Below, piece after piece: positions 17,103 to 58,067 of a stretch of DNA of 64,000 nt. The stretch covers positions 4,488 to 68,487 of the forward strand of contig JAZRVP010000002.1 in the NCBI GenBank assembly GCA_045599245.1, written 5' to 3'. A program made the translations under genes and the position numbers. Each line of letters starts with the position of its first letter. Position 1 is the stretch's first letter. Source of the stretch: Myxococcota bacterium. GTDB taxonomy: Bacteria > Myxococcota_A > Bradymonadia > UBA4248. The notes under the pieces were generated by a model that did not search any database, was not told the DNA's origin, and was given only the letters and a program-made list of their open reading frames with translations.

Positions 17103-17194
17103 ATCGGACGAGAAAAGATGATGCCACAACTGAAGACTGAAAGCCAGCAAAAAAAGAAAAAAGTTCAGAATAAAGTTACAGCTCAGTCTGGGCT

Positions 17195-26074: not shown

Positions 26075-26102
26075 AGCCCGTTTTTACGGGCTTTTTTTTT
26101 GT
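26075..26102 (+). terminator. Rho-independent terminator (preceded by a second hairpin ggcgcc-ttga-ggcgcc at 26052..26067)
   Basis: gcccgt-tttt-acgggc followed by T9. Confidence 0.75.
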
Positions 26103-26169
26103 GTTTTTAAACCCAAATCGAGTAAAATCAGTGTTTTGTGATGGTCGTTTTTTATCTGGAGTTCCTGTT

Positions 26170-29100: not shown

Positions 29101-30132
29101 AAGACCGCAAAGGCGCCTGAATGGCTCTCATGCAACGCGGATTTCGAGCCCAATGACTATCCGTCGTCAGCTTATGACCTTGTCAAGGCCGCCAAATCCG
29201 GCAAGACGCTCGAACTGTGCCCCTCCACCGACGAAGATTATTACAAAATCGATCTCCACGAGGGCGACCGCCTGCAGCTCGGTTTCAAGACTGAGGCCAC
29301 GGGGCTTCGCGCCGCTCTTTACGTCGGCACGGAACAACGCTTTCTCAAACTCCTCACGAATCCGGCCGCTCAGGGACTCGATTACACCGCAACCGAAGAC
29401 AACACGTACTATCTTCGCATCTACACAAACGTAACCAATGCCCCGACCATGCCCTACCAGCTCCAGTGGCTTGGCACGGAAGGCGTCGATATGGCCGTTT
29501 CCAACCTGAAATACGCCCCGGAAATTCCATCCGCCGGTTCCCCGATAACCGTCGATTACGACATTCATAACCGAGGATCGGTCGAAACCGCCTACAATAC
29601 CGCCGTTACACTCACGACGAATCAGCCCTACACGCTCGCGACGGCTTCCGGAAAACTCGCCCCAGGCGCCACCGAAAACGCGCGTCATAAAATCACAATC
29701 CCCTCACAAATTCAGGGCTTTGCGACGCTATCTGTCACCGTTTCGGCCGATGGCGACGAATCCTCCGGTAACGATCGCCAAATGCTCGAATTCACCATTC
29801 TGGCCGCCTGCATGAACGACGACAATGAACCGAACGACAACATCCTGCGCGCAACGCCGATCGAACACGCCATTCAAGGCACTCTCTGCCCCAATGACGA
29901 AGACTGGTTCAAAGCCGTCCTGACCGAAGCCGCAGCCGCGACTCTCAAATTCTCGCACGAGAACGGCGATCTCGATCTCGAGGCCTACGACGAAAACGGT
30001 GAACTCATCGGACAAAGTACGAGTGCAAATGACATCGAACGCATCGAGCTGCCAAATGCCGGCACATACTATCTTCGCGTTCGCGGGTCGAGTTCATCGG
30101 ATACGGGAACTTATGAGCTGACAATCGAGTAG
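26170..30132 (+). CDS. large surface lipoprotein with PKD domain, multiple CARDB-like domains and four pre-peptidase C-terminal (PPC)-like domains
   Basis: The start was re-set to MKKYCFRAMLLAVLITGC at 26170. The PKD motif is WDFGDGITLAGDYEASHHYRDAGKYKVSV. Repeated domain ends ..NNVAFG, ..SNNTVRS, ..EDNNIQRS, ..EKNNTKN, ..PSNNIVRT, ..SGNDRQM are typical of CARDB. The PPC-like modules are EPNDRISEA...DLFQLDL, DPNDTIETA...DFYVIDM, EPNDYPSSA...DYYKIDL, EPNDNILRA...DWFKAVL...GTYELTIE. Confidence 0.85.
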   Translation: MKKYCFRAMLLAVLITGCGSESDDLTFSIFADPSRTHAPGDITFELTRDDGEPVTECSGKWDFGDGITLAGDYEASHHYRDAGKYKVSVALTCDDKKGKASTDVEVFGTVDLGVAAVEARPLDISTNGTLSVSFQVSNGANNALQIPTYIDIYLTPTASETAYLESGASRIFRHTLPSLPAAGNENSVQKIELDIPLDASIRTGAYYLSAVINPDHQIGEVSYANNVAFGTQAVTVRNQATDGADFVASRLQVSPPVTSILTSATAQFDIINQGSTTAETFRYEVWIGAKDNAENMDGATKIHESTIDGGMSGVEQSFKNILLSITPAISDPGLYYFWLVLDPNDAIVERDESNNTVRSSAPIQITNEPVLDADITVEKLTFAPTSTNPGGTFSATVDLYNQGSQPTGSFVCTIFLSNDMSLDIDKDSIVGSLNVDNLLPLSSQTMTGIMETDTGITPGKYWVYAFCDSSGVVSEANEDNNIQRSENQLVVTSDADIDLVFGPPQLESTSTLNDGNDISMSVMYCNKGSTSAGPSYVSVMRINRCDNTETEFSRILVEGMDAGHCENVYAKAPLVCDFWCPNYAFYFIADSTMIVDETEEKNNTKNLQEKITMSGDNCVCAGDKYEPNDRISEAALVRAVHDDLTLCPNDADLFQLDLVEGETTEIHLSHDHLKSPLELSMIRGSDVISSVSGSDDLYLTDLHAINTKQMPTYVKISGLTATDANRYHLDADIYSTITGIDLAASTLKIEDDALNASDNRRVSMILTNLGKSTSPSVSIGYYLSRTTQIDDSAWRLARQTVSPIPPNTTTAPAINLKLPADTEGGSYFLIAKVDDENEIKDARPSNNIVRTPLWKFERSCWDILDPNDTIETARTIPLKDGQFHQDELAVCQNNPDFYVIDMKNGYSLDITATTTGTGDFDLVLYDQNFNEIVSSRTGSATESIHRDAVIGDQKLYLQVFLLENIYNAKEAAYTLDIKTAKAPEWLSCNADFEPNDYPSSAYDLVKAAKSGKTLELCPSTDEDYYKIDLHEGDRLQLGFKTEATGLRAALYVGTEQRFLKLLTNPAAQGLDYTATEDNTYYLRIYTNVTNAPTMPYQLQWLGTEGVDMAVSNLKYAPEIPSAGSPITVDYDIHNRGSVETAYNTAVTLTTNQPYTLATASGKLAPGATENARHKITIPSQIQGFATLSVTVSADGDESSGNDRQMLEFTILAACMNDDNEPNDNILRATPIEHAIQGTLCPNDEDWFKAVLTEAAAATLKFSHENGDLDLEAYDENGELIGQSTSANDIERIELPNAGTYYLRVRGSSSSDTGTYELTIE

Positions 30133-33255: not shown

Positions 33256-33330
33256 GCCGGGCGTATCGCTAAGGCGATAGCCCGGCAGGCGAGCCGTAGA
33301 GCCGCAAAATTTTACGGCTCAAGACGAGCC
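33254..33330. repeat. two hairpins between convergent genes (family member R7)
   Basis: gccgggcgtatcgc-taag-gcgatagcccggc (compare R4) and gccg-caaaatttta-cggc. Confidence 0.6.
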
Positions 33331-34683: not shown

Positions 34684-34951
34684 TGAGCCTTTAAAAGAGA
34701 GAGGGAAAAGGGAGGAAATGCCAGAGAGCGGGTGGGGCGTCTATGTCCTTCGGGCATACGACGACTGTTCCTCGGCTATTTCCCGGTGGTCAATACGCCT
34801 CGGAAAGGGTATGATGATAGCGTATCTTGAGAGCAAAAAAAGCACAATATGTGCAAAAGTGGCGTCTGAGACGGCTTGCGTATAAACCAAAGACAGAGTA
34901 AAGTAAGACGGTTTATGGTCTGCGCAAAGCGCATATTAAGGAAGGAACAAT

Positions 34952-37528
34952 ATGGGCGTATTGGCGAAACCCATCCCATTTGGCGATTATTTTTTATTGG
35001 AAAAGCTGAATACCGGCGGCATGGCCGAGGTATTTAAAGCAAAGACGTTTGGTGTCGAAGGCTTTGAACGCATCGTTGCTGTGAAGAAGATTTTGCCGTC
35101 AATCGCCGAGGACAAAGAGTTTATCTCGATGTTTATCGACGAGGCGAAGATAGCCGGGCAGCTGACGCATGCGAACATTGCGCAAATCTTTGATTTGGGC
35201 AACATTAACGACGAATACTATATTGCCCTGGAATATGTTGCAGGACATGACCTGCGTGTGATTTACGATCGATGTGTAAGGACCAACCGGAAGCTTGATA
35301 TCGGATGTGTTTGTTACATCATATCGAAGATCTGCGAGGGTTTGGATTATGCCCACAACAAGCGAGATGCGAACGGCGAATTGATGGGAATTATCCATCG
35401 AGACATCAGTCCGCAGAATATGCTCATCAGCTATGAAGGCGACTGCAAACTGATCGATTTCGGTATTGCAAAAGCGAGCAACAAATCGTCAGCGACGCAA
35501 GTCGGCATTCTGAAAGGCAAATTCAGCTACATGAGTCCGGAGCAGGTTTCTGGCAAGACGAACATCGATCGCCGAAGCGATATATTTGCATTAGGCATTG
35601 TCTTGTTTGAAATGCTGACACTCAAACGTCTGTTTTTGGGTGCGAGTGACTTTGAGACCCTGGAAAAGATCCGCAAAGTCGAGTTGAGTCCACCGACCCT
35701 GTACAATTCGGATATTCCGGAGGAGCTTGAAGACATCGTGATGAAGGCCCTGGAAAAGGATGTAACGCAGCGTTATCAGACGTGTGCGGAACTCCAGCAG
35801 GCACTCCAAAAATTCATGTTCACGCATAATATTTATTATACGGCAAAAGAATTGAGCGAGTTTATGCGCTCAATGTTTGCCCAGGAAATAGCGCTTGAAC
35901 AGAAGAAGATGGAGTTCTATCGGGAACTGACCCGTGATGTCCTGATTCAGTCAAAACAGCCGAGTGCGAATCTCGAAGATGAAACGTCGTTCTATGATCG
36001 GCAGAATGTGCCGAAAATGAGCGGAGTCCAATACGAGGCAGCAGTAGTCCAGACGGCGCAGCCTGCGCCGAAACAGGCTATTTATGCAGAGCTGGACGAC
36101 TTCCAGCCGCCTAATGAAGGGATCGTGTACTCGCCGAAACAGGCCGTAAACAGCCCGAATGTCATCGACAGTGTCAATGTCAATGACATCGTATCAGCGT
36201 CGGTCAATTCAGGCAAAGCACACCCCAGTGCGCGCAAGTCAATGGCTTCAATGGATGCGGTTGTTGTCAACAAAAATCGCGAAACCATTATGACAACTCC
36301 GGTTGAGAAAAAACAGAACGGAGAAAAGCGAGGTGCCTTTATCGCCATCGCCATCGTTCTCTTTATCGTTATTCTCATCCTGATCGGTCTGATTTCAGGT
36401 AAAGGCAGTCTGTTTGATAAACATGACGGCAAAGTCCGTTTCGACATCTATCCCGAAAACGTCAAAGTTAGCGTCGAAATCAATCACGAAAAGACGGGAG
36501 ACAATCTCACCAAATCATTCAATATCAGCGATCTTTCGACGAATACAGAAACGGCATATCGCATTTCAGCCCCGAATTATAAAGATTTTGAGGGCACGAT
36601 TATGGCGACAGGCGAAGGAGCCCTGGTCGAGATCAATCTGGAATCACTGATTGTTCCCAAAGCAAAGGTGTTTGTCGACGTCGATGGTGCCGATGTCTAT
36701 ATCGACGATGCGCATCAAGTGGGAGACAATCGCCAGTTTGAAAGTGAAGAGCTCTCGATTGGTGATCACGTCCTTCGCGTTGTGAAAGAAGGTTACAAAC
36801 CGGAAAAACGAACGATCAAAGTCGAAACAGGACGCGAAATCGAACCGATACACGTCAAACTTCGTCCTGCCATTGCCACCCTGGTCATCAAGACGGAACC
36901 GTACAATGCCTCCTATATTCTCAAGAATCTGAGAACCGGAGACATCGTGTCCAAAGACAACACGAAAGCGGGGGTTGCGCGAATCAGCAATTTGCCGGTA
37001 GATACCGATTATCAAATTGTAATTTACGATGGCAAAGAAGAGCGTATTGAATCATGGAAACCGCGTCCCGGTGCGTTGCCGACGGAAGATCAGGTTAGAA
37101 CGTTTACGATCAAGACGGATCCGGATGCCGTTGCGGTTGCCGCAGCACCGGCCCCGGTTCAGCAACCGGTAGCCGCGCCAGCACCTGCCCCGGAAAAAGA
37201 AACGAAAACCGCGAGTGCCGGAAGCAGCAAATCGACAACGCCCAAACCTAAGAAAACGGAATCGGAGAAGAAAGCCCCTGCACCAGCTGCGCCAGTGGCG
37301 AAGCCAACGCCAGTTGTTTCATCCGATGCCCCCGGTGTCCTCCAAATCGCAGGCAAACCGCCTTGCACGGTTACGATCAAGGGTAAATCATACGGTTCGA
37401 CCCCCATCAAGTATCTTGAAGTGGCGGCGGGTACGTACACAATCAAGTGCGCCAGTGCAGACAGTTCGGATGAAAAAACGGTCACTGTCGGCAGTGGTGA
37501 AACCAAAAAAGTCATGTTTACGCGTTAA
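34952..37528 (+). CDS. Ser/Thr protein kinase with transmembrane segment and extracellular PEGA domains
   Basis: Hanks kinase motifs GGMAEV...VAVKK, HRDISPQN, DFG, SPE. TM helix AFIAIAIVLFIVILILIGLIS. PEGA-like segments ...GADVYIDDAHQVGDN...GDHVLRVVKEGYKPEKRTIKV and ...CTVTIKGKSYGSTPIKYLEVAAGTYTIKCA. Confidence 0.85.
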   Translation: MGVLAKPIPFGDYFLLEKLNTGGMAEVFKAKTFGVEGFERIVAVKKILPSIAEDKEFISMFIDEAKIAGQLTHANIAQIFDLGNINDEYYIALEYVAGHDLRVIYDRCVRTNRKLDIGCVCYIISKICEGLDYAHNKRDANGELMGIIHRDISPQNMLISYEGDCKLIDFGIAKASNKSSATQVGILKGKFSYMSPEQVSGKTNIDRRSDIFALGIVLFEMLTLKRLFLGASDFETLEKIRKVELSPPTLYNSDIPEELEDIVMKALEKDVTQRYQTCAELQQALQKFMFTHNIYYTAKELSEFMRSMFAQEIALEQKKMEFYRELTRDVLIQSKQPSANLEDETSFYDRQNVPKMSGVQYEAAVVQTAQPAPKQAIYAELDDFQPPNEGIVYSPKQAVNSPNVIDSVNVNDIVSASVNSGKAHPSARKSMASMDAVVVNKNRETIMTTPVEKKQNGEKRGAFIAIAIVLFIVILILIGLISGKGSLFDKHDGKVRFDIYPENVKVSVEINHEKTGDNLTKSFNISDLSTNTETAYRISAPNYKDFEGTIMATGEGALVEINLESLIVPKAKVFVDVDGADVYIDDAHQVGDNRQFESEELSIGDHVLRVVKEGYKPEKRTIKVETGREIEPIHVKLRPAIATLVIKTEPYNASYILKNLRTGDIVSKDNTKAGVARISNLPVDTDYQIVIYDGKEERIESWKPRPGALPTEDQVRTFTIKTDPDAVAVAAAPAPVQQPVAAPAPAPEKETKTASAGSSKSTTPKPKKTESEKKAPAPAAPVAKPTPVVSSDAPGVLQIAGKPPCTVTIKGKSYGSTPIKYLEVAAGTYTIKCASADSSDEKTVTVGSGETKKVMFTR

Positions 37529-37568
37529 AGCCATCGGGTCGATTTCGCCCATGGCTTTTGTCAGGCAT

Positions 37569-37597
37569 AAAAAAGCTCCCAAATGGGAGCTTTTTTT
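37569..37597. terminator. bidirectional Rho-independent terminator (A6-hairpin-T7); an additional hairpin at 37529..37556
   Basis: aaaaaagctccca-aat-gggagcttttttt, lying between the kinase gene (+) and the Cys-rich pseudogene (-). Confidence 0.75.
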
Positions 37598-37615
37598 ATA
37601 AGCAAGCAAATCACG

Positions 37616-38334
37616 TTACATCATGCGAAGACATGCATCCTGTTCATCCACACCATTGCCTTCAATGCAAATGAACTCACAAGGTACTTCGCTGAATTGT
37701 TCGTTTTCGTCACAAACGAGAAGAATATTCTCGGTCAAACATTTTGCTTCACCCCAAAAGCATTTTTTAGTGATGCATTGATTTCCTTTTGAATTGAATT
37801 TGTATTCACTGGTACAAGTGATTTTGCACGTCCCATCAGCGAGACATTTTCCGGAAGCCACGCCTTCGCCTTGTGTACAATCGATTTCCAGTTCACCGCA
37901 TTTGTAATCACAACGGGAAGGCAAGTATTATTCGAAGAGAGGGCATATCCATCCTCACAGGTTGCGATTTTACAGGTTCCATCGGACTGGCAAGAAGCTG
38001 ATTGAACACAATCACCGGCCATGCAATCGATGCAGCTGTCACCGCAGCAATGTGCTGTCCCCATTTTAATGCATTCAAAACTGCCATTGACTTCACGAAC
38101 GAAATCGAGTGACTCCGGACAATAGCCATTTTTCAGGGATTTTTCGGCGTTTTTGGTATCGTATTCACATTTTGAACTGTCAGGATTTCGAAGACAGGAT
38201 TCAAAAACAGCCGTGCATGTCCCCGATTTTCCTTCCGGAGGACAAGGAAGTCCATTCTAGGAATCATCCCCACTGCAACCGGAAAATGCCATAAATAACG
38301 CGAGCCCCCCGAAACATTTGAATACAGTTTTCAT
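37616..38334 (-). pseudogene. Cys-rich lipoprotein gene disrupted by an in-frame TAG and a frameshift
   Basis: Minus-strand ATG at 38334 gives MKTVFKCFGGLALFMAFSGCSGDDS and then TAG (plus coordinates 38257-38259). The same frame continues Cys-rich to 37735. Near 37925-37935 the Cys-rich reading shifts frame (..SSNNTCLP / (L)PSRCDYKCGELEID..) and continues to 37616. Three track ORFs (37616..37924, 37735..38064, 37908..38129) are fragments of this gene. Confidence 0.5.
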
Positions 38335-38343
38335 ATCAACCTC

Positions 38344-38380
38344 AAACAAAAAAGTCCCAGGACACAATGGCCAGGGACTT
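38344..38380 (-). terminator. Rho-independent terminator of the 38413..41847 gene
   Basis: On the minus strand: agtccctgg-ccattgtgt-cctgggact followed by T6. Confidence 0.65.
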
Positions 38381-38412
38381 TAATAGACTGAGAAACAATA
38401 CCTACAACATCG

Positions 38413-41400
38413 TTATTTGCAATAAGAAAACGTCACGCCGCCCGACGTTTCGGTGACGCAAGCGTTGTTGCATCCCATGGAATGAGCGGCGGCATCTGTT
38501 GTATTGTTGTTTTGCCAATAAAGGACGTGGAGCGTATTGCCGTCACACGTGCCAAGTGTAGAGACAGGCTTTGTTGTAGAGTCAGAGAATATGAAGTTGC
38601 CAGCAGATTTGTTGCAAACGGCACGTGCAACACCATTGGAATTGACGACAGCGCAAGTACCGCCGGCCGTGGCGCAATCCATTTCGGCATAGACATTTCC
38701 GCCTTCACCGGAGTTATAAGTGGGATCGTAGAAGCAGTTCTGGGCTTTAGTTCCACTGCAGGTAGCAGAAACAGCCGCGCAGGAAGCGAAGCCGCAAGAC
38801 CCGTTTGTACAAGTTCCACCGCCGTTAAGACCGCAGTTCATATAATCGAAAACGATATGATTATTGTGACCAGCCGTTTTATCGACTCGACAGGAAATGG
38901 AGTTACCATTTTCACAGATACCGGACTGTCTCAAAACACCGTATTTTTCGACACCTTTATAATCGGTGCCTAATTCACATTTACCAATGTATTGAATGCC
39001 GTCCCATGTCGAACACCAGGTAACATTATTCGCAACATCCGTCGCGTTGCAAATGCTGTAGAAATTGGTTTCACCTTTAATGGTTCCACAGAAGTATTTG
39101 CTTGGATCGTTATAATAAACGAATTCAATGGTTTTGGTGTCTCTATCGCAGGATTCGAGATAAATTCTGCCGTTGTCTTCGTGGCAAACATTCTTGAACG
39201 TAGCGGGAACACAGGCCTTTCCGGCTCTGGATTCACAACGTCCATCCACGCAAGTGGATTGATAATCGCAAGCCATGGATTTTTTGGAGCCATCGCCGCT
39301 GTAATCGCAATAGATTAAATTACCATTCTCATCACAAGAAGGTTTAAAATCCTTGCCGCATTTATCGACGCAACCCTCGCCTTCGACGCATTTTTCGGTT
39401 GTTGATGGGCAGGTCACATCTTTATATTTTTTCGTTGTCGGATCGCAAATGTGAGCCGTGATGTTACTGCCACTGCACGTCGGGGTAGTTGTAACAGGAT
39501 CGCATTCTGCACAAATACCGTCGAGGCAAAGGCTTGGACACGAATCGACTTTTGCGACCTGGCCGTTCTGACAATAGATGCTGGTCTTTCCATCCTGACA
39601 TTTCTGACCATTGAGAAGGCCATCACACCGTTTGTCGACACAATTTCCTTCGTAGCAAACCTCAGTATCGGTGCATTTATTTTCCTTTTTGAGACCGGGA
39701 ACTGCACAAACCTGAACGGCAGAACGATCAGCAGAGCAGACTGCGGGTTGAGAAGGATCGCATTCGGGAACGAAGACGCATTTATTTTCTTTGCATTCGT
39801 AGTGTTCAAGCGCGCAATCAGCATTTGTCGAGCAAGTGGTTGAACAAGCATTGCCCTCGCAATGATAGCCGGTCGGACAATCCGTTTTTTCGATTTCATT
39901 CTTGTCATTGCAAGAGAAAAGCGCGTTATCTGTACAGTTCAAAGTATATTTTGCGGGATCGCAGGCGACGCATTGTCCATCGAGGCAGACGGCTTTATCA
40001 CCCGAGCAAGCTTCCTGTGCAGAGATATGCCCATCGACACAGGTGAGAGGTTTATTGTCACTATTGCAGCCTGGGACAAATGAATCGGGATTGCATTCGG
40101 CGCAAACGCCGTTGAAACATACCGGGAGATCGCCGGAGCATTCACTGACAGCAACTTTATAATTCTCACCGTCGAGTTTGCACTCAAGAATTTTGCCCTC
40201 GGTCGTACATTTGGGCGAGAAAGTATCGGGCTGACAAGGATCACCCTCTTTTGCGTCATCGACACAATCACCGGCGACACAATGCTGATTGGCATCACAG
40301 GCTTTTTTCTCGACTGTACTGCCTTCACAAACGAGCTTGTTGAAATCACCGCTGCATGAGGCAACAAAAGAAGCGGGATCACATTTCTCGGCAATGCATT
40401 GTCCAGCCTGACAAATCTGGGCACCGCAATCAAATTTAGTCACGACGCCGTCTTGAGAGCAAATATACGAGCTGTTGCCATCAATGCATTGAGGAACAAA
40501 GGATGCCGGGTCACAAGCATCACCTTCGTTGATATTGTCATAACAAATGCCATCCGTACAATGCTGATTTGCCGCGCAATCATACTTGGCGAGATAACCA
40601 AATTCACATTTAACGACAGCCGCGCCATCACAAGAAGCCGAACCGGCAGTTGACATGTTACATGTCGTAGCAGTCGAAGCATCAACACATGCACCGGCAA
40701 CACAAACCTCTGAATCGACTTTGCAATATTTGGAGTGCCATGTATCGTCTTTACAAATGCGAACAACATTTGCAGAAACGCAATAATCACCGCCGCTTGT
40801 GCAGGCTTCGCCAGGTTTCTGGCAGATACCGCCCTCACAAATCTCCCCCGTATCACAGCTGGATGGTGTCTTTACGCCTGTCGGGCCGCAAATTGTTACG
40901 GTACTTTCTTCCTGACAAACCGGAGTGAATTTATCGACATCACAGGAACCGCTGACTGTGCACGTTCCATTGATACATTCCGTTCCCTCGACGCAATCAA
41001 TACGTTCAACGACGCCAATATCACTGCATCTCTCGAGCTGACCATCGACGCATCTGGGTTTAAAATCCGCCTGAGAGCAAACGTCTGTTACGCAGGCTTT
41101 GTCTTTGCAGACATTACTGTTGCAAATTTTCGTTCGGATTTTCCCATTTTCACAATAAAATTGAGAAGTTCCATCGAGTGTACATTCCATGAACCCTTCA
41201 TCGCATTCGTCGGAGCAGGCGCCGTTTCTACATACCTGTTCGCCATCGCAATACATGGGGGTTTCATATCCATCGATGCACTGAATAATCGTTCCATTGA
41301 TACCGCATACCGGTGAATAGGATGCATCACACGGTTTAGCGGCGCCACAAACGCCGTTGAAACAAACCTCGCCATCGGCACAAGGATGACTGACGACATA

Positions 41401-41847
41401 TCCGCCCATACAGTGAAGCATTGTATGGGGATCGCGGCACTGTTCTTTATAGGTATTGTCACAAGTCGTCATACTTTCATCGCGGCAGTATCCCTGATGA
41501 CAGACATTGCCTTTTTCACAAGGCTCACTCACTGTCATACCGAGAGCATTGCAAATAAAGTGTGCATTATCGCCATCACAAGTCATGACATGAGTTGACG
41601 GCGTACATTTTGCGGAGCATTCACCGAGGTAACAAGTTGTTCCGGGCAAACAAGCCGTGGGTTCATAAAAGCCATTTTTACAAACGAGGACATCGCCGGT
41701 TTGGCTGCAAGTTTTTTCGCCGTCAACCGTACATGTCTGCCGTCCGGCCAGACCGGCGATACCGTCATCAGAGCAACCATAACCTGCCGCGAGAGCCATT
41801 GCAGCGAGAACGACAAATACATTTTTACGATTCATATTTAACCTCAC
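38413..41847 (-). CDS. very large Cys-rich surface lipoprotein (high Cys content; different repeat type from the CGDG proteins)
   Basis: Signal/lipobox MNRKNVFVVLAAMALAAGYGC (the alternative ATG at 41835 is the more likely start). Cys is spaced every ~6-10 residues over >1000 aa in EGF-like C..G.C..G.C patterns. No homologous known domain recognised. Confidence 0.8.
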   Translation of the reverse strand: MRLNMNRKNVFVVLAAMALAAGYGCSDDGIAGLAGRQTCTVDGEKTCSQTGDVLVCKNGFYEPTACLPGTTCYLGECSAKCTPSTHVMTCDGDNAHFICNALGMTVSEPCEKGNVCHQGYCRDESMTTCDNTYKEQCRDPHTMLHCMGGYVVSHPCADGEVCFNGVCGAAKPCDASYSPVCGINGTIIQCIDGYETPMYCDGEQVCRNGACSDECDEGFMECTLDGTSQFYCENGKIRTKICNSNVCKDKACVTDVCSQADFKPRCVDGQLERCSDIGVVERIDCVEGTECINGTCTVSGSCDVDKFTPVCQEESTVTICGPTGVKTPSSCDTGEICEGGICQKPGEACTSGGDYCVSANVVRICKDDTWHSKYCKVDSEVCVAGACVDASTATTCNMSTAGSASCDGAAVVKCEFGYLAKYDCAANQHCTDGICYDNINEGDACDPASFVPQCIDGNSSYICSQDGVVTKFDCGAQICQAGQCIAEKCDPASFVASCSGDFNKLVCEGSTVEKKACDANQHCVAGDCVDDAKEGDPCQPDTFSPKCTTEGKILECKLDGENYKVAVSECSGDLPVCFNGVCAECNPDSFVPGCNSDNKPLTCVDGHISAQEACSGDKAVCLDGQCVACDPAKYTLNCTDNALFSCNDKNEIEKTDCPTGYHCEGNACSTTCSTNADCALEHYECKENKCVFVPECDPSQPAVCSADRSAVQVCAVPGLKKENKCTDTEVCYEGNCVDKRCDGLLNGQKCQDGKTSIYCQNGQVAKVDSCPSLCLDGICAECDPVTTTPTCSGSNITAHICDPTTKKYKDVTCPSTTEKCVEGEGCVDKCGKDFKPSCDENGNLIYCDYSGDGSKKSMACDYQSTCVDGRCESRAGKACVPATFKNVCHEDNGRIYLESCDRDTKTIEFVYYNDPSKYFCGTIKGETNFYSICNATDVANNVTWCSTWDGIQYIGKCELGTDYKGVEKYGVLRQSGICENGNSISCRVDKTAGHNNHIVFDYMNCGLNGGGTCTNGSCGFASCAAVSATCSGTKAQNCFYDPTYNSGEGGNVYAEMDCATAGGTCAVVNSNGVARAVCNKSAGNFIFSDSTTKPVSTLGTCDGNTLHVLYWQNNNTTDAAAHSMGCNNACVTETSGGVTFSYCK

Positions 41848-41932
41848 AGGGATAGAAGAAAATCACACCCGATAAAAACACACAAAGCCGTCTCATAGCG
41901 AGACGGCTAAGAAAATTCAATGAGTACCCCAA

Positions 41933-42958
41933 TTATTTGGCAGAAACATCGGCATTTTCAGCCTTTTTTGGAGCTGCTTTAGGTGCTGCTTTTTTAACCG
42001 AAGCTTTCGGAGCGACGGCAGATGTATCGAGGCCGGCGGCCAAAGCCATCAACGTCGTCATCTGTTCGTCTGTAAACGATACCGTTGCTTTGATATTCTT
42101 TTTATCACCAGCAATTTTGACGGCATCTTTGACAAAACCAAGACCGATTTCATTGAGTGAAGGATCCGAGAGAATGCCATTAATCTGAGCATTGAGAATG
42201 GCAGCGCCGGAAGTCGCAACGGCATCACTGGCGACCTTGGCATCGGCAACGACATTGAGCCCTTTGGCAAAGCTGATGGAAACGGAGCCTGAATCGATAT
42301 CACTGACAGCGATAGAGGCATCCCCCTCTTTAAGGCTGTAAGATTTGGATTTTTCTTTGAGGTAACTGGTCATTTTAGCACCGATGCGGATATCGGCGGA
42401 CTTTGATGCAGCCTGATAGGCATCGTAAATGACCTTGTCACGGTCTTTGAGTGTTTTCGGCTTTTCAGCTTTTGCGTTATCGATAATCGGCTTGATATCG
42501 AGTTTATTTTCGCAAACAACGAGGCGTTTGTCGTTCAAAAGCACCATCGAATTGTTGGCATCGGAAAAAATCATGAGCTCGTTGTAAGCAGCTTGTGTTG
42601 ACTGCATTTTTTTGGCGGAAGCTTCAACGGCAGCGAGAAGAGAAACCTTGGCATCCACAGCCGCACATGCGCGGCCTTTTTCCGTCAATGCGATGGTGAT
42701 CGTATCGATATCTTTTTTGTAATCAATGCCGGAGGCTTTGAGTTCATCGAGAACAGCCTGGACACCGCTGTTTGATGCAATTCCCTGATTTACGGCATCC
42801 GACACCATTTTATTGGCAACAAGTTTATCAAAATCAATGCTGCCGACGCCTGCAAAATCGCCGACAAAAAGATCAATTGCATCCAAATCTTTGGCCATTG
42901 CCGTCGTACAAAAACCAAGAGAAAGGGCCGTAAAAGCAGCTACTAATGCGTTTTTCAT
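41933..42958 (-). CDS. secreted hypothetical protein with Ala/Lys-rich C-terminal tail
   Basis: Signal peptide MKNALVAAFTALSLGFCTTAMA. The C-terminus is KKAAPKAAPKKAENADVSAK. A hairpin at 41891..41912 lies downstream. Confidence 0.7.
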   Translation of the reverse strand: MKNALVAAFTALSLGFCTTAMAKDLDAIDLFVGDFAGVGSIDFDKLVANKMVSDAVNQGIASNSGVQAVLDELKASGIDYKKDIDTITIALTEKGRACAAVDAKVSLLAAVEASAKKMQSTQAAYNELMIFSDANNSMVLLNDKRLVVCENKLDIKPIIDNAKAEKPKTLKDRDKVIYDAYQAASKSADIRIGAKMTSYLKEKSKSYSLKEGDASIAVSDIDSGSVSISFAKGLNVVADAKVASDAVATSGAAILNAQINGILSDPSLNEIGLGFVKDAVKIAGDKKNIKATVSFTDEQMTTLMALAAGLDTSAVAPKASVKKAAPKAAPKKAENADVSAK

Positions 42959-43104
42959 TTTTATTCTCCTTCACAGATGCGGTCTTAAATTAAAAGAGTT
43001 GGCAATGGAGCCGGATTTTAGATACAGCAATTCTAATGCCAAACCCTGTTTTATGGCATATTTTGTCTTTTTCGTAAAGAGAACATGGCAAAAGCATAAA
43101 AAAA

Positions 43105-43166
43105 GCGCGGCGTATGTCAATAGCCGCGCTCGCGAAGCGTATTCGCCTTTGGCGAATAGCGAAGCC
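43105..43166. repeat. two hairpins between co-directional genes (family member R8)
   Basis: gcgcggc-gtatgtcaata-gccgcgc and gcgtattcgcc-ttt-ggcgaatagcg. Confidence 0.6.
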
Positions 43167-43168
43167 CA

Positions 43169-45262
43169 TCACTCAGCATCAAGACTGGCCCGGATAATCC
43201 CTACACCACAATTGTCTCCGCCGCCGCCAAGATTGGCCTGCATGATCAGTTCAAGACAAGCCAGAGCCGAATTATGGGCATGACGAACGACGTCCGCTAT
43301 TTTGGCCTCGCTCTCCGTAATTTCACACGCCACGTAATCAAGAATGCCGTCCGTCGTGAACATCAGCGTGTCACCCGGTATCAGGCTCATGCTGTAAACA
43401 TCATACGCCAGGTCGGTTCCATCCTGATTCTCCTCGTTATAACCAAGACATTGGACAAGCGACCCGGCATGTGGATGAACCGCACACATCTCAACGGGCA
43501 ATCCATTGATGATGCCCACGGTAAACAAATTGTGATCGCGCGTTATGCACGACATGAGTTCATCACGAATGATATATGCCCGCGAATCACCCACAGCGCC
43601 AAGGGTCAGAATGCCGTCTTCGATGAGTCCGACGAGTGCCGTTGTTCCCATACATTCCGACGCCGTCGGATTTTTATCTGCAAAACGGTCGCGGATGTAC
43701 TGGCAGATTTCCTCGTTCGATTCGAGTAAAATCTGACTGATTTCATGAATAGGACTCAGCGTCTTTGCTGCTTCTATTCGCTTGTTCCAGGCATCTTCGG
43801 CTTTGGCTATGACGATATGACTTGCAATATCTCCGGATCCGTAGGTCGATGTCGAAACCCCGTCGGCGACAACCATCAGAATGCGCTGGCCATTCTCACT
43901 TTTTCTCATGAACACAGCATCCTGATTGACAGGACACTTCAGACGCTTGGTCACCCCGATATGGGTATCGACGGCCGCATCATACTGCAGCTGCGCTCGA
44001 AAATCCCTGCGCTCATGCATGAAATCAAGCGCATTGCTCATCGCATTCATGAACTCCGTCATCGTACGATATCGAAATTCCGGAGAAGCATGAAGGGAGG
44101 CATGAATGATTTCATCCCAACCAATCGGAAATGTCGGATTAAAGGCGCGAGGATCAAGGGCCGGTTCAAAATTAAGCGCATCACAGGTCGGCACACGGTT
44201 TCCGGCAACGAGATAGTATGCCATTGCACCCAAAACATAAACGGCCTGTGCCATCGTCATGCGCTGTCTTAAAAATCCAAAACATTCCGGCGGAACCGAC
44301 GCCAAATCCCCCTGCCCATGCTCGATCGCGCAACGTTCATTCCACGGCAAATCAAACGATTCCGCGCCCATAAAGAGAATTTCATCGTCCCGAAGAACGA
44401 TATTTTCCGGTGAAATGCGAAGAAACGTATGTCCGGAAGCAAAGACTGCACTCAGCTTTGAACAGATAAACGTCAAAATGCGATACACAGAACTTGGCGC
44501 AACGAAATGCTGCGCCTCACGCCACGTTGCTACTGTCTCTATGCCATCGAGTGAATAGGCCTGTGCTATGGTTCCCGCAACTTTTCCCATGTACTGACAC
44601 GGCCATACATACGCCTTGCACTCTTCGGGAACCGGCTTTCTTCCTGACACGGGAAAATGAATGCACATCAGCCACGGACGGTGATCTGCGTCCTCGGCAC
44701 GCCACATCAAAGTCGCATCGAATCCCGGACAAGACTTCAGAAGCATCAGCTCCTGAACACCTTCCTGCGGCGAATAAAGAACAAATCCCAGCTGATCATT
44801 GCCTAATTCGAGAATTGCATAGCGAGTCTCCCCCGAGCCGCCTTCACACTGGCAGGCACAACCTTTCTGGACCAGATACGCGTCCACATCATTCGTGAAG
44901 ACAAACATATCTCCGTCTGCCGGACACGGAATGGCTGCATTATCCGACGACTCCGGGATTTCCGTAATGATCGGCATTACATCCGTGTCACAGGAATCCC
45001 CCTGCGACATCAAATTCGATGTCGCCAAATCATCGATGTCTTCTCTGACGTCTTCCGCATTGGCATATACATCTTTAGCCAGCATCGAAAGTGTACTGCC
45101 TGCACTGTAACCTTCATTCTCGTCGTCATTCAGAGCATTCTGTCCAGACACCTCGGCACTCTCTCCACATACCGCCGCCGATGTAACATCTTCCGCACGG
45201 CACACCGCGCCAAACCTATTCTCTGGCACTTCACGAAACTGTTCCGGTTCTTGTTCTGACAA
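43169..45262 (-). CDS. PP2C-family Ser/Thr phosphatase fused to an N-terminal degenerate kinase-like (pseudokinase) domain
   Basis: C-terminal PP2C motifs LMVVADGVSTSTYGSGDIAS, GTTALVGLI..GDSRAYI, FTTDGILD. The middle region is kinase-like, but the catalytic HRD is replaced (FLRISPENIVL). Confidence 0.8.
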   Translation of the reverse strand: MSEQEPEQFREVPENRFGAVCRAEDVTSAAVCGESAEVSGQNALNDDENEGYSAGSTLSMLAKDVYANAEDVREDIDDLATSNLMSQGDSCDTDVMPIITEIPESSDNAAIPCPADGDMFVFTNDVDAYLVQKGCACQCEGGSGETRYAILELGNDQLGFVLYSPQEGVQELMLLKSCPGFDATLMWRAEDADHRPWLMCIHFPVSGRKPVPEECKAYVWPCQYMGKVAGTIAQAYSLDGIETVATWREAQHFVAPSSVYRILTFICSKLSAVFASGHTFLRISPENIVLRDDEILFMGAESFDLPWNERCAIEHGQGDLASVPPECFGFLRQRMTMAQAVYVLGAMAYYLVAGNRVPTCDALNFEPALDPRAFNPTFPIGWDEIIHASLHASPEFRYRTMTEFMNAMSNALDFMHERRDFRAQLQYDAAVDTHIGVTKRLKCPVNQDAVFMRKSENGQRILMVVADGVSTSTYGSGDIASHIVIAKAEDAWNKRIEAAKTLSPIHEISQILLESNEEICQYIRDRFADKNPTASECMGTTALVGLIEDGILTLGAVGDSRAYIIRDELMSCITRDHNLFTVGIINGLPVEMCAVHPHAGSLVQCLGYNEENQDGTDLAYDVYSMSLIPGDTLMFTTDGILDYVACEITESEAKIADVVRHAHNSALACLELIMQANLGGGGDNCGVGIIRASLDAE

Positions 45263-49824: not shown

Positions 49825-52704
49825 TTATTTCTGGCAAATACCGCTGGTGCTTACTAATCGATATCCGGACTCACACTTCGTCGCTACACATTTGCCCGAC
49901 GTATTGCAATTAACCGCCGTACTGTTGGCCACTTTGGATATATCACACACCTGGTCATGACCTCCGCAATTCTTGTCGGAATTCACCTCACACGTGTTGT
50001 CATATACGTGATAATTGCTCTTGCAGCTACACTTTGAATAACTCAAAGTTGCATTCTCCACACAACTCGTTGCCTGACAAACGCCCCCTGTCGAACATTT
50101 ATATGCCGCACTCAAAGGCGCTGCTTTCTCATCACAGGCCTGTTCATGCGCCCCGCAGTTCGCGTCATCATTGAGTTCACATGTATTGTTATAGGCATGA
50201 AATTTAGCATTGCAGCTGCAAGTCTGTTGCGTTGTACTGCGCGTCGCATTATCGACACAGCTCTTGGCTACACATTTACCCTTTTCACACGCCAGTTCCT
50301 TGCCAAACGGAACCGTCTCGGCGTTACATGCGACTTCAACAGAACCACAATGTTCAAGACTGTCCTCTTCACAGGCATCGCCTTTTGCATTCAGATGCGT
50401 CCCCGTTTGACACAAGCATTTTCCTCCCGAAAGATTCGTTCCGGACTCACATTTCGTTGCTTCACACACACCTGACGTTGAACACTTCGCCGAGACACTC
50501 AACGGAACTTTTTTATAACTGCACTCCGTTTCATGCTCCCCGCAGTGTGCGTCCGAATTCTCTTCGCATGTATTTTCATACTTGTGATAACCGCTTGAAC
50601 AAACACAAGATCCGGAACTCACCGTGGCATGAGAAACACATGTCGATGCCTTGCACACCCCCGTCGTTGCCGGACACGATACAGTTTTACTCAAGGACAT
50701 TGTATTGACACTGCATTCTGCGCCGTGTTCACCACAGTTCTCCGTTGTGTTCTCCTCACAGGTGCTCTCATAAACGTGATAGTTGCTCCGGCATGTAATG
50801 ACACAGGCGCCGTCCTTGCACGCAACAGAACTCGCATTTTCCGGCTTGTCCGGGCACTTGTTGCCCTCCTTGCCGCAATTGTCTGTCGTATCCCTGACGC
50901 ACTCACTGTCCTTGATGTGATAGCCTGAGGCACATACACAAGTTCCACCCGAACACGTGCTGTTTGAAGGACAAACGGTATCATGCGTTCCGCAATGATT
51001 GTTGTCATCTTCCTCACAATCCGTACCGTTGGCATGATAACCACTGGCACAAACACAGGTCGCATTGACACAATCAAAGTGCTCTGAACAGGCCTTGTCA
51101 TGACTGCCGCAATGACCTGCATCATCCGCCTCACAATCCGCGCCATTGACGTGCATTCCCGCTCCGCACACGCCTTCTGCGCAGACACCGTCTGCACAAT
51201 TTTCATTGCCATTGCACGCCTTGCAGGCATCTCCCGTCACGCCGCATGCATTGATATTCGCCTTGCCATCAACACACGTGCCGCTGCTCAGACAATACCC
51301 TTCCTGGCACTTGCTCGGTGTACACTGCCCATGTGGGCATGTTCCTTCAAGCCACCCCTCAACCGTTTCTGCACATGAAATTCCATGTTCCGAGCAATTC
51401 TCGACCGTGTTGTCTTCGCACTCACCTTCATAAAGATGTTTGTCACCATCCGGACAGTCCGTATGAATGATGCAAATTTTCTCTTCTTCCACCAAATCAT
51501 AACCATCCAGACAGGATGCGGCGACACACTTGCCGGAGACACAGCTTACGTCCTTCCACCCTTCCAATGCCGAACAGTTATTTCCATAAGCCCCGCAATC
51601 CGTCAACGTATCATCCTGACATGCCCCATCCTGACGATGCTGGTTCTCAGGACACGCTTCTTCACACATCCCGGCAGCATTCACACGGTAGCCATCGATA
51701 CAAGTCCTGGCAAGACAAACGCCTTTTTCACACACACCCGTGAGCCAACCCGAAAGTTTTGTACAGTTATTGTCATGAGAACCGCAGTTTTCTGTACTGT
51801 TTGCTTCACATACCTCGCCGAACATGTGATGCGTCGTTCCCACGGCACACTCGCTGTTTGCCACACATGCATTGGAATTGACATCATACGAATATCCATC
51901 GGAACAGCTGGTTGGTGAACACTTTCCACTCAAACACGATCCAGATCCCCAGCCTTCCAATTTCGTGCAGTCATTGCCATGACTCCCGCAATTTTCCATG
52001 GAATTCTGTTCACAGCCATTCTCAAAGGCATGTTCATTGCCAAAACACGACACAGCTTTTGCCTGGCACGCTCCCCCAACGACCTCAAACCCTGCCTGAC
52101 ACGCGGTTGCCACACACACCTTATTGCGGCACTCACCGCTGTCCCATCCCTTGACGCTTGTACAGCCATAATCATGGCTTCCGCAATGCTCAACGCTGTC
52201 ACTCTCACAGTCGCCATCGTAAGCATGTTCATTGTCAAGACACGAAACAGGGTCCGGAACCGTTCCTTCACACACGCCTTTGACTAATTCATAACCATCC
52301 CGGCACTTGCTCGCCACGCACTTTCCATACTCGCAGGTACCTTCAACCCAACCGCTCAACTTTTCACACGATGTGTCATGCGAACCGCAGTGTTCTAATG
52401 AATTATCTACACATTCGCCATTATAAATATGTTGACCGGAAAAGCAGTTACTTTCTGCACAGAAATACTCTTCTCCTTCATTCAAACACTTCGGAAATTC
52501 CTTGGGGCATATATTATTTTTAAACGAGTTTGAAAAATCCCCCAAATCACAGGAAGTTTCCGTACAGGTTTGTGAAAAGATATAACTAATTCCATGGGAA
52601 GCAAATGTCGGTGGCGGACACACATCTCCATGCTCCACGGGATTATCTGAATCACATCCAACCAACAAAGCAGCCACAATCAAAAACTTCGCGTATCGTT
52701 TCAT
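49825..52704 (-). CDS. Cys-rich repeat surface lipoprotein (about 13 repeats of E(N/H)CGSHD..C..L.GW..G.C..GKC....C.DGY)
   Basis: Lipoprotein signal MKRYAKFLIVAALLVGC, with a regular ~45-aa Cys repeat. Many alternate-frame ORFs on both strands are artefacts. Confidence 0.85.
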   Translation of the reverse strand: MKRYAKFLIVAALLVGCDSDNPVEHGDVCPPPTFASHGISYIFSQTCTETSCDLGDFSNSFKNNICPKEFPKCLNEGEEYFCAESNCFSGQHIYNGECVDNSLEHCGSHDTSCEKLSGWVEGTCEYGKCVASKCRDGYELVKGVCEGTVPDPVSCLDNEHAYDGDCESDSVEHCGSHDYGCTSVKGWDSGECRNKVCVATACQAGFEVVGGACQAKAVSCFGNEHAFENGCEQNSMENCGSHGNDCTKLEGWGSGSCLSGKCSPTSCSDGYSYDVNSNACVANSECAVGTTHHMFGEVCEANSTENCGSHDNNCTKLSGWLTGVCEKGVCLARTCIDGYRVNAAGMCEEACPENQHRQDGACQDDTLTDCGAYGNNCSALEGWKDVSCVSGKCVAASCLDGYDLVEEEKICIIHTDCPDGDKHLYEGECEDNTVENCSEHGISCAETVEGWLEGTCPHGQCTPSKCQEGYCLSSGTCVDGKANINACGVTGDACKACNGNENCADGVCAEGVCGAGMHVNGADCEADDAGHCGSHDKACSEHFDCVNATCVCASGYHANGTDCEEDDNNHCGTHDTVCPSNSTCSGGTCVCASGYHIKDSECVRDTTDNCGKEGNKCPDKPENASSVACKDGACVITCRSNYHVYESTCEENTTENCGEHGAECSVNTMSLSKTVSCPATTGVCKASTCVSHATVSSGSCVCSSGYHKYENTCEENSDAHCGEHETECSYKKVPLSVSAKCSTSGVCEATKCESGTNLSGGKCLCQTGTHLNAKGDACEEDSLEHCGSVEVACNAETVPFGKELACEKGKCVAKSCVDNATRSTTQQTCSCNAKFHAYNNTCELNDDANCGAHEQACDEKAAPLSAAYKCSTGGVCQATSCVENATLSYSKCSCKSNYHVYDNTCEVNSDKNCGGHDQVCDISKVANSTAVNCNTSGKCVATKCESGYRLVSTSGICQK

Positions 52705-52854: not shown

Positions 52855-53433
52855 TTATATTTCTTTTCCCTCGAGCATAAATCTCGATATGATATGATGA
52901 TGTGCACCCGTCTCATTTAAATCCGATCCAATTAATACAAATTCAAATATTTCCGACTGACCGAAATTTAAATCCCGAACGGCATTGATTGCATCCGTTA
53001 GATTGATGCGATTCGTCCGCGTTGCCACACGTCCAAGCAGCATATTTGTCTCAAAATGACGTCCATCATATCGCAGATTTGCCGCATTACATGCTTCCAT
53101 CAGCCTCTCTCTCAAATCGTGAAGCTTCTGGTTCGCCTCCGCCGAAACCTGAATAAGACGCGGACATTCCGGTGACGGATACGCACTTATCCCCGCTGTC
53201 ATCATCTGAAACGCAGGAAAACTCTTCGCCACCTGATGAAGAAGCTCGTTGAGCTCCGGAATCGATCCATCGTCGTGACGACCAAGGCAAAGGAGTGGCA
53301 AATGCAGGTGTTCCGGACGCGTCCAACGAGAATCCGCCCCTCGGCTCGATATGATTTTGCCAAGGTCTTCCTGCAAAAATGTCAGTCTCTCCACCAGCTT
53401 GATGTCTGGTTCTATTGCAATTGTAAATATCAT
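52855..53433 (-). CDS. 2H phosphoesterase superfamily (LigT/ThpR-like) protein, catalytic motifs atypical
   Basis: The start was re-set to MIFTIAIEPD at 53433; the track's N-terminal MAVRPLARTAWRMAVRPLAG is a translation of tandem repeats. Size and layout resemble ThpR/LigT (..HLHLPLLCLG.. and ..GRHFETNMLLGR..), but the two H-x-T/S-x motifs are altered. Confidence 0.5.
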   Translation of the reverse strand: MIFTIAIEPDIKLVERLTFLQEDLGKIISSRGADSRWTRPEHLHLPLLCLGRHDDGSIPELNELLHQVAKSFPAFQMMTAGISAYPSPECPRLIQVSAEANQKLHDLRERLMEACNAANLRYDGRHFETNMLLGRVATRTNRINLTDAINAVRDLNFGQSEIFEFVLIGSDLNETGAHHHIISRFMLEGKEI

Positions 53434-53454
53434 CGTTTCATCATGCTTTTTCTG

Positions 53455-53560
53455 AACGCCGGCTAATGGCCTAACGGCCATACGCCAGGCGGTCCTCGCT
53501 AGTGGCCTAACGGCCATACGCTCGGACTTTTTTTCGCCATCCGGCTAAAAGCCGGCACAA
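53455..53560. repeat. 2x tandem TGGCCTAACGGCCATACGC hairpin repeat + ccggctaaaagccgg hairpin (family member R10)
   Basis: taatggcctaacggccatacgc at 53464..53485 and agtggcctaacggccatacgc at 53501..53521, then T7 and ccggc-taaaa-gccgg. Confidence 0.6.
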
Positions 53561-53820: not shown

Positions 53821-53877
53821 CCTGTGCGTATGAAATAGCACAGGCACGGGCGGCGTATGGCTTCGCCATAGACGCCC
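53821..53877. repeat. two hairpins inside AT-rich island (family member R11)
   Basis: cctgtgc-gtatgaaata-gcacagg and ggcgtatggc-ttc-gccatagacgcc. Confidence 0.6.
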
Positions 53878-54800: not shown

Positions 54801-54809
54801 CTTTACCTC

Positions 54810-55517: not shown

Positions 55518-55518
55518 A

Positions 55519-56517: not shown

Positions 56518-56553
56518 TCTTTTCTTTCCTGATATTTCGCCAATCTGGCGAGG

Positions 56554-58034: not shown

Positions 58035-58067
58035 CGTTTCTTTTCCAAATTGCTGGATGTACGCCGA

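Follow-up and report, generated by a model that had tools for sequence, protein, structure and literature searches.

The interval 34952–45262 of the 64,000-nucleotide (nt) stretch of contig JAZRVP010000002.1 analyzed here (the window, in whose coordinates positions are given unless a locus is named) contains five genes in a row that appear to be transcribed separately. At its core is a minus-strand array that is conserved among relatives, in which a gene for a secreted protein of 341 amino acids (aa), hereafter Sec341, and in most cases one for a giant Cys-rich putative lipoprotein come after a gene for a PP2C phosphatase fused to a predicted pseudokinase, while a convergent gene for a PEGA-domain Ser/Thr kinase is an apparently facultative neighbor (Table 1). 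We hold this anatomy, comprising the conserved core, Sec341 and the giant gene, the facultative kinase and a set of palindromic hairpins related in form to repetitive extragenic palindromes (REP), to be highly probable. The best explanation of the locus overall joins the anatomy to envelope-protein production from a sigma-54-type promoter that is gated by phosphorylation, and on this combination our judgment is evenly balanced. Taken by itself, the regulatory link from the phosphatase to the promoter, which is drawn only from their positions, seems doubtful.

The comparison covers 115 loci, each compared with all window proteins, which were gathered from a genome scan with the phosphatase alignment, from exact look-ups of homologs of the phosphatase, Sec341 and the giant protein, and from a metagenome scan for the kinase. 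The scan for fusion-phosphatase loci was made with an alignment as query; a single-protein query gave no match, and an exact look-up of the window's own phosphatase returned no record. Gut-clade loci were dereplicated by phosphatase identity to give 18 lineages (loci are cited below as L and a number). Homologs of the fusion protein occur in metagenome-assembled genomes (MAGs) labelled Proteobacteria or Myxococcota bacterium, with more distant ones in Persicimonas and Lujinxingia, and the closest loci come from bins of roe-deer and goat omasum, cattle colon, buffalo rectum and human gut. The closest relative is L115, with a giant protein 87% identical to that of the window. From these homologs and closest loci, the window is assigned to an uncultured gut- or rumen-associated Bradymonadia-like myxobacterium. 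An initial annotation, made from the window's letters, had placed these genes in Fibrobacter; that origin is ruled out, since all relatives of the fusion protein are Myxococcota or Bradymonadia MAGs.

The open reading frame (ORF) map and domain scans bear out the gene calls of that annotation, which comprised a Hanks kinase with PEGA domains, a PP2C phosphatase fused to a pseudokinase, the secreted Sec341, a Cys-rich giant and a Cys-rich pseudogene. It had described four co-directional genes bracketed by the kinase and the phosphatase; the minus-strand array is real, and three genes stand between the two signaling genes.

The fusion protein begins with an acidic tail and the remnant of a degenerate zinc ribbon, followed by a kinase-like region (approximately residues 170–430) and a PP2C domain (residues 445–690). 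A profile from an alignment of 35 family members was searched against PDB sequences, and its C-terminal half matches PP2C phosphatases (tPphA, 1e-31) while its middle matches PknE (3e-14) and PknB (7e-14) over kinase residues ~43–278. When the fusion is aligned with the window kinase, GIIHRDISPQN of the kinase corresponds to GHTFLRISPEN and the Asp of DFG to the glycine of LFMG, so that HRD has become FLR and both catalytic aspartates are missing; a glycine loop or VAIK motif was not recognized in the kinase-like region. We therefore describe the middle of the protein as a predicted pseudokinase. The PP2C domain, by comparison, is apparently an active phosphatase, with the metal ligands D448, D467-G468, D559, D638-G639 and D683-N684 invariant in the 35 members and a PP2C_2 score of 31.4 bits against a cut-off of 24. 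Its score for the Stp1/IreP equivalog (NF033484) is 107.6 bits against a cut-off of 230, which makes it a relative and not a member. Distant family members start with a zinc ribbon of the form CPxCG...CxxCG that has decayed to IPCPAxGD in the window's clade. The check that finds a transmembrane segment in the window kinase found none in the fusion, which is predicted to be cytoplasmic. The family is Bradymonadia-wide, with at least 358 fusion-phosphatase loci among species-representative genomes. The text of a 2025 review of bacterial pseudokinases (PMC12599244) mentions neither PP2C fusions nor Myxococcota in its account of the families ActPs1-3, GLW, CP1, DYD and DLHK.

Sec341 follows the phosphatase gene directly in 14 of the 18 gut-clade lineages (it is missing in L005, L011, L012 and L013), and wherever upstream sequence exists it is never found without the phosphatase. 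The giant gene comes next in 11 lineages; it is missing in L091 and L110, and in L008 the contig ends. This order of phosphatase fusion, Sec341 and, in part, giant gene is kept across lineages whose phosphatases are 42–59% identical. The gene order proposed by the initial annotation thus stands for the array, and does not extend to the kinase, which comes and goes as described below. The array can itself be lost, as L002 has both Sec341 and the giant gene and L005 has neither, with phosphatases 88% identical. Since such close relatives have lost both genes and kept the phosphatase, the latter must also have a role that is independent of them. In L002, and in that lineage alone, contractile-injection genes (Phage_sheath_1, Phage_T4_gp19 and a protein of >1379 aa) directly follow the array (L002 18068–22052). 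A LigT-like phosphoesterase gene of the window adjoins the phosphatase gene in L005 and L006.

Sec341 has no match in Pfam, and its family, confined to the gut clade, numbers just 23 clusters, with an A-x-A signal peptide that is invariant throughout. Its AlphaFold2 (AF2) model has a predicted local distance difference (pLDDT) score of 80 and a predicted template-modeling score (pTM) of 0.75, and the top Foldseek matches to it in the PDB are to Treponema pallidum TP0453 only (E 3e-8, probability 1.0), with a template-modeling score of 0.49 on the query and 0.64 on the target at ~7% sequence identity. The model has in common with TP0453 (PDB 3K8G–3K8J) an alpha/beta/alpha sandwich. Sec341 is unlike TP0453 in having a signal-peptidase-I site, no conserved lipobox, ~60 extra residues and a Lys/Ala/Pro-rich tail. 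We thus regard its predicted fold as TP0453-like, a resemblance and not an established homology. TP0453 itself is associated with the outer membrane and has been proposed as a carrier of lipids or glycolipids, with amphipathic helices that insert into and perturb membranes (PMC5421087).

The element upstream of Sec341, TGGCATTAGAATTGCT, is close to the sigma-54 consensus TGGCAC-N5-TTGCW, with GG at -24 and GC at -12. The pattern TGGCAY-N6-TGCW has a single match in the window, in the right place and on the right strand for Sec341, and over the 115 loci it has 24 matches in 23 loci, 20 of which lie directly upstream of Sec341. Among the 22 loci examined for it, 21 carry an element of this type upstream of the Sec341 ortholog, including every full-length locus, at a spacing of 83–107 nt (260 nt in one lineage), and in several it begins 3–40 nt past the stop codon of the phosphatase gene. 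The segment 43026–43041 is thus a putative sigma-54-dependent promoter of Sec341. In the group of L004, L016 and L086, an extra gene of 203 aa without a Pfam match is found between the phosphatase gene and this promoter. Genes with a Sigma54_activat domain occur in the clade (L083).

A terminator-like hairpin with a T-run ends each gene. The bidirectional terminator in the gap between the kinase gene and the pseudogene, with fold z-scores of -6.0 on the plus and -4.6 on the minus strand, is kept in L001 (8018–8047) and in L115; contrary to the initial annotation, which had given it to the two signaling genes, it serves the kinase gene and the pseudogene. The strong hairpin past Sec341 has equivalents behind the ortholog in L001 and L002. 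Most relatives have a terminator and then a sigma-70-like promoter before the giant gene (for example, TTGACA-17-TATAAT in L014), and in the window the gap between Sec341 and the giant gene is 86 nt. A single operon is rejected on account of the terminators after each gene and of the promoter-like elements, which stand ahead of Sec341 and, among relatives, of the giant gene as well. We accordingly read the array as a series of separate units and not as an attenuated operon.

The attenuator in question had been tentatively assigned to palindromic hairpins at 43105–43166, between the phosphatase and Sec341 genes. Inverted repeats are indeed present at 43104–43130 and 43140–43158, but they are copies of a dispersed REP-like family with conserved flanks, GCTAT-N(2-14)-ATA[CG]GC, around a variable self-complementary core. 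The window holds ten copies where shuffles predict 0.24, all of them between large ORFs, bar one within a doubtful TTG-start ORF, and often in tandem. Beyond the window the family is found in 33 of the 115 loci, nearly all of the gut clade, with several copies in most gut-clade loci and none in the other 82 loci. The fold z-score of the whole region is an unremarkable -1.9, and the intergenic RNA structure is not kept among relatives, whereas the promoter element downstream is. We accordingly reject an attenuator in favor of REP-like repeats and a terminator: the 43104–43130 repeat has T7 behind it and looks like the terminator of the phosphatase gene. The family resembles the REP elements and bacterial interspersed mosaic elements (BIMEs) of Proteobacteria in that its members are short, imperfect palindromes with conserved flanks, lie between genes, often as tandem copies where genes end, and are specific to a lineage. 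It differs in having its own consensus, and no REP-associated tyrosine transposase (RAYT) was identified with the window family. It appears to be lineage-specific and undescribed.

The kinase has intact catalytic motifs (VAVK42, HRD149, DFG169 and SPE195) and a Pkinase match above cut-off, as is characteristic of the Hanks type. Its one transmembrane segment, at approximately residues 460–483, is followed by a PEGA region (PF08308, 46.3 bits against a cut-off of 20.8, in two stretches with the best at residues 806–854) that is probably extracytoplasmic. The kinase converges on the array in six lineages (the window with L115, L001, L004, L007, L091 and L110) and is absent beside it in five (L002, L010, L014, L083 and L086) whose sequence runs on downstream for 3 kb or more. 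Phosphatases can be 89% identical between a locus with the kinase (L004) and one without it (L086). Where the giant gene is missing, in L091 and L110, the convergent kinase and Sec341 genes are direct neighbors. Orthologs 56–66% identical occur both beside and away from the cluster. Those of L092–L096 (56–57% identical) adjoin a different kinase, and a 3.4-Mb environmental contig (L099) has an 877-aa PEGA kinase, with a catalytic domain 64% identical, among ABC-transporter and hydrolase genes. Because presence and absence are so divided, close relatives differ and orthologs live elsewhere, we take the PEGA kinase to be a separately conserved membrane kinase that is a neighbor of the array in about half of the lineages. 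Co-transcription of the kinase with the array is excluded, since the genes stand tail to tail with a terminator between them.

These other settings deserve a brief description. At L092 3900–5200, and at the same position in L093, L094 and L096, the ortholog converges on a second, smaller Hanks kinase that is 27% identical to it. In L099 the genes that precede it encode a PEGA-domain protein of 477 aa, separate from the kinase, together with an ABC ATPase and a permease of the FtsX/MacB type (6081–7514 and 7538–9735), surroundings that hint at a different conserved context for the kinase. Kinases are also found 4–8 kb from distant members of the phosphatase family (L061–L079, 23–30% identity). 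Hanks kinases are abundant in Myxococcota, for which reason we give these no interpretation.

The giant protein has 135 cysteines (counted in the 1144-aa ORF), distributed over ~19 tandem 44-residue modules with six Cys each and a Cys-poorer C-terminal region of ~270 aa. The module follows the pattern C-x7-C-x8-C-x11-C-x5-C-x3-C and ends in GxC. The protein has no match in Pfam or NCBIfam, and CBM_19 is matched in only one of six orthologs. Orthologs keep the cysteines without exception and conserve little besides. The giant appears to be diverging fast, with ortholog identities of 31–43%, relative to 42–64% for Sec341 and 55–71% for the choice-of-anchor-D lipoprotein considered below. An AF2 model of a module pair (27 in-phase pairs) is all-beta with a pLDDT of 87.6 and has no significant fold neighbor in the PDB (best E 0.25). 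Neither by profile nor by fold is the module assignable to known Cys-rich families (DUF4215, CPL1-like, CBM14/CBM19, EGF-like), and a search of 1.84 billion proteins with its profile yields 481 representatives. Where it occurs in larger proteins, it stands together with beta-helix, PKD, Big_7 and IgGFc-binding domains, company that fits an extracellular stalk or spacer. Putative lipoboxes were read by eye as LAAGYG-C-SDD in the giant (Cys invariant in six orthologs), AFSG-C in the pseudogene and LMTS-C in the choice-of-anchor-D protein.

The slot after the giant gene varies among lineages, and the small Cys-rich lipoprotein gene that occupies it in the window is dead. Relative to the L115 ortholog it has a change of GAC to TAG at codon 26 (38257–38259, directly past the lipobox), and near 37911 it lacks 1 nt; barring assembly errors at both sites, it is a true pseudogene. 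The window holds three more intact giant Cys-rich lipoprotein genes, each with another type of repeat. Grouping them with the giant as one family was rejected, as only one marginal BLAST match (E 0.002) joins any of them. Since such genes are common here, with four intact in 64 kb, a giant Cys-rich gene near a kinase is unremarkable in itself; the genome has an unusual density of disulfide-rich surface proteins.

Just outside the interval, and divergent from the phosphatase gene, lies a gene for a choice-of-anchor-D lipoprotein that seems to be the most anciently linked neighbor of the phosphatase and the strongest linkage seen, because it is kept over larger divergence and through inversions. 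The protein has ASH, HYDIN-type Ig and PKD domains and a further C-terminal domain of ~190 residues; a resemblance of the latter to DUF2135/YfaP was considered and dropped, since neither Pfam (E<=10) nor a sequence search of the PDB supports it. In most gut-clade loci the gene adjoins the phosphatase gene, in three orientations, and in ~30 Bradymonadales loci, including Lujinxingia vulgaris and Persicimonas, it lies immediately upstream and co-directional, at 29–32% identity and with gaps of ~100–190 nt. The other neighbors of the phosphatase in Bradymonadales, an epimerase and a 1630-aa acyl-reductase/acyltransferase, are unrelated to those in the window. Part of the choice-of-anchor-D signal may be ordinary Bradymonadales synteny.

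In the explanation we favor, the dead kinase domain would serve to dock the phosphatase, either on a Hanks kinase that is active or on the substrate of that kinase, with the neighboring PEGA kinase as one candidate partner. The resulting state of Ser/Thr phosphorylation would control an enhancer-binding protein (EBP), as for the FHA-type activators of Myxococcus, and this activator would fire the sigma-54 promoter of Sec341 and thereby adjust the production of Sec341 and perhaps of the envelope proteins encoded by its neighbors. FHA-domain EBPs of Myxococcus xanthus reportedly place sigma-54 activators under Ser/Thr control; PMC12288465 cites Jelsbak et al. (2005) on them. Several observations weigh against this explanation. 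The 64-kb window has no gene for an activator, an FHA protein or rpoN, and a nearby sigma-54 activator is seen only in the L009/L083 lineage, which leaves no candidate activator for the Sec341 promoter. The genes are separate units, and adjacency alone is no proof of co-regulation; L005 has kept the phosphatase without Sec341 and the giant, both of which its close relative L002 has. Finally, an enhancer within the phosphatase gene could alone preserve the adjacency, and it would overlap that gene because the sigma-54-type element lies so close behind the stop codon in some loci.

The last point leads to a possible but somewhat unlikely alternative, that the genes are an inherited neighborhood without a common function in which phosphatase and Sec341 are held together by an enhancer overlapping the 3' end of the phosphatase gene. 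The apparent transcription unit and terminator of each gene, the gain and loss of components between close relatives, the abutment of promoter element and stop codon in several loci and the scatter of Cys-rich lipoprotein genes over the window are all consistent with it. Such a neighborhood sits less easily with Sec341 being found only downstream of the fusion in 14 lineages, whose phosphatases are down to 42% identical and whose outer flanks are wholly different, or with a choice-of-anchor-D pairing that outlasts inversion and class-level divergence. The initial annotation had gone in the other direction and taken the PEGA kinase and the pseudokinase-PP2C protein as a cognate pair, bracketing a single surface-sensing module of envelope proteins with attenuator hairpins. 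The adjacency of the kinase in six gut-clade lineages, even without the giant gene in L091 and L110, and its probably extracytoplasmic domain speak for this, and it is plausible that a pseudokinase would dock with an active Hanks kinase. We nevertheless consider it unlikely: the kinase is inconstant, missing in five lineages with enough sequence and differing between L004 and L086, and occurs without the cluster in L092–L096 and L099; the genes are tail to tail and separated by a terminator; the hairpins are a repeat present ten times in the window; and Myxococcota have many Hanks kinases.

A narrower functional unit would pair the fusion phosphatase with the choice-of-anchor-D lipoprotein and treat Sec341 and the giant as a later, clade-specific insertion under independent sigma-54 control. 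The co-directional position of the lipoprotein gene in Bradymonadales, its retained adjacency in the gut clade in spite of three orientations and its retention in L005, L012 and L013, all of which are without Sec341, point this way. The downstream epimerase and acyl-reductase are also conserved in Bradymonadales, however, so the pairing may be plain synteny; no lipoprotein gene of this kind was detected next to the remotest members of the family (~29% identity), and no mechanism joins a cytoplasmic phosphatase to an exported lipoprotein. We consider this pair, by itself, very unlikely as the explanation of the locus, and it is compatible with, not exclusive of, the phosphorylation-gated promoter that we prefer. 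Combining the two would give a previously unrecognized trans-envelope Ser/Thr pathway of Bradymonadia, in which the fusion, docked on a Hanks kinase of the membrane, for instance the PEGA kinase, would act through a phosphorylation-dependent sigma-54 activator to switch a rapidly diversifying, disulfide-rich surface coat in these gut relatives of predatory bacteria, with the choice-of-anchor-D protein and the sigma-54-driven Sec341 and giant genes as further parts; this extension is a quite improbable one.

Table 1. Features of the interval, of the rest of the window and of related loci (window coordinates unless a locus is named).
Feature	Position	Strand	Remarks
PEGA Hanks-type Ser/Thr kinase, 858 aa	34952-37528	+	Pkinase E 1.7e-40, PEGA E 4e-12
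Bidirectional intrinsic terminator	37569-37597	both	A6-GCTCCC-AAAT-GGGAGC-T7; gap between kinase gene and pseudogene
Small Cys-rich lipoprotein pseudogene (intact form 239 aa)	37616-38334	-	compared with intact L115 ortholog
Terminator-like hairpin and T-run past giant gene	38348-38381	-	z -3.2; stem GUCCCUGG...CCUGGGAC, then U6
Giant Cys-rich lipoprotein, 1140 aa from ATG (1144-aa ORF)	38413-41835 (ORF to 41847)	-	
Strong terminator hairpin past Sec341 gene	41876-41908	-	10-bp stem, 6 G-C pairs, T-rich tail
Sec341, secreted 341-aa protein	41933-42958	-	A-x-A signal peptide, AF2/Foldseek fold
Sigma-54-type -24/-12 element	43026-43041	-	TGGCAT-TAGAA-TTGCT; 83 nt upstream of Sec341 start codon
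REP-like copy and T7	43097-43130	-	palindrome copy at 43110-43124; GCTATTGACATACGC within stem AGCGCGGC/GCCGCGCT; intrinsic-terminator shape for phosphatase gene
Second REP-like copy	43137-43160	-	GCTATTCGCCAAAGGCGAATACGC
Pseudokinase-PP2C fusion, 697 aa	43169-45262	-	PP2C_2 E 1.7e-7; NCBIfam Stp1-type E 6.7e-31
Choice-of-anchor-D lipoprotein, 652 aa	45462-47420	+	divergent from phosphatase gene; NCBIfam choice_anch_D E 1.7e-36
REP-like copy upstream of kinase gene	34775-34798	+	
Further REP-like copies	5934-5956, 9784-9807, 23163-23184, 33261-33281, 53826-53839, 60914-60933, 60947-60968		
Giant Cys-rich lipoprotein	6156-9656	+	seven DUF4215 repeats, PA14
Giant Cys-rich lipoprotein	23456-26035	+	unassigned, 75 Cys
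Giant Cys-rich lipoprotein	49825-52704	-	CPL1-like, 119 Cys
AAA-ATPase (predicted) with PD-(D/E)XK nuclease domain	10681-12312	-	
tRNA-Trp (CCA)	17029-17103	-	
CARDB/PKD/PPC secreted protein	26101-30132	+	
LigT-like phosphoesterase	52855-53517		
Housekeeping block	53952-58781	-	electron transfer flavoprotein (ETF) alpha/beta subunits, TPR protein, TonB, ExbD and ExbB homologs
YhgA-like (Transposase_31) gene	62811-63830	+	
Extra 203-aa gene	L086 8924-9535; L087 2367-2978; L004 ~9800-11300		
Choice-of-anchor-D relatives	L038 6505-8874; L035 6651-8762		

Elsewhere in the window, a secreted protein of 1343 aa that carries PKD domains, four CARDB domains and, at its C terminus, a PPC domain is encoded just upstream of TPR, esterase and amidohydrolase genes. 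The AAA-ATPase/nuclease gene and the YhgA-like gene are possibly mobile or defense-related, and the tRNA-Trp gene is the sole RNA gene that Rfam and ARAGORN find in the window.

Both Ser/Thr kinase/PP2C signaling and sigma-54 control of envelope genes are well known, and the overall logic proposed here is not new. The uncharacterized parts are the phosphatase-dead-kinase family, the clade-restricted Sec341, a rare six-Cys beta module and the lineage-specific REP-like repeat. If the positional link between phosphatase and promoter reflects regulation, the locus offers a testable entry into surface remodeling in uncultured gut and rumen Myxococcota, and otherwise it would be a conserved neighborhood of an ordinary kind.

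Among the closest known systems are the kinase/phosphatase pairs PknB-PstP (Mycobacterium tuberculosis), PrkC-PrpC (Bacillus subtilis) and Stk1-Stp1 (streptococci and staphylococci), in which, as in the window, a membrane kinase with an extracytoplasmic sensor has a PP2C phosphatase encoded nearby; it is the Stp1/tPphA type that the PP2C domain of the fusion most resembles. In the known pairs the two genes share one direction and one transcript. The window genes depart from such cognate operons in orientation, co-transcription and constancy of adjacency, as they are convergent, 5.6 kb apart, separated by a terminator and adjacent in about half of the lineages; in addition, the kinase ectodomain is PEGA and not PASTA, and the phosphatase is fused to a pseudokinase.

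The claim of the initial annotation that no kinase/phosphatase pairing with surface proteins had been described overlooks Pseudomonas aeruginosa's TagQRST-PpkA-Fha1-PppA pathway, where a kinase/PP2C pair with an outer-membrane lipoprotein and periplasmic proteins senses perturbation of the envelope (PMC7817224). The window likewise brings together a kinase, a PP2C phosphatase and envelope proteins. It differs in having no FHA protein, ABC-like TagS/T or type VI secretion system (T6SS) genes, in envelope proteins that are unrelated in sequence, and in that contractile-injection genes follow the cluster in one relative only (L002). The FHA-EBP/sigma-54 regulon of M. xanthus is a precedent within Myxococcota for Ser/Thr phosphorylation that feeds sigma-54-dependent transcription. 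In the window a putative sigma-54-type promoter stands directly downstream of a Ser/Thr phosphatase gene; the link between the two is positional, and no activator was identified. Placed among these systems, the locus is best filed as a Ser/Thr-phosphatase-associated envelope gene cluster built of uncharacterized families.

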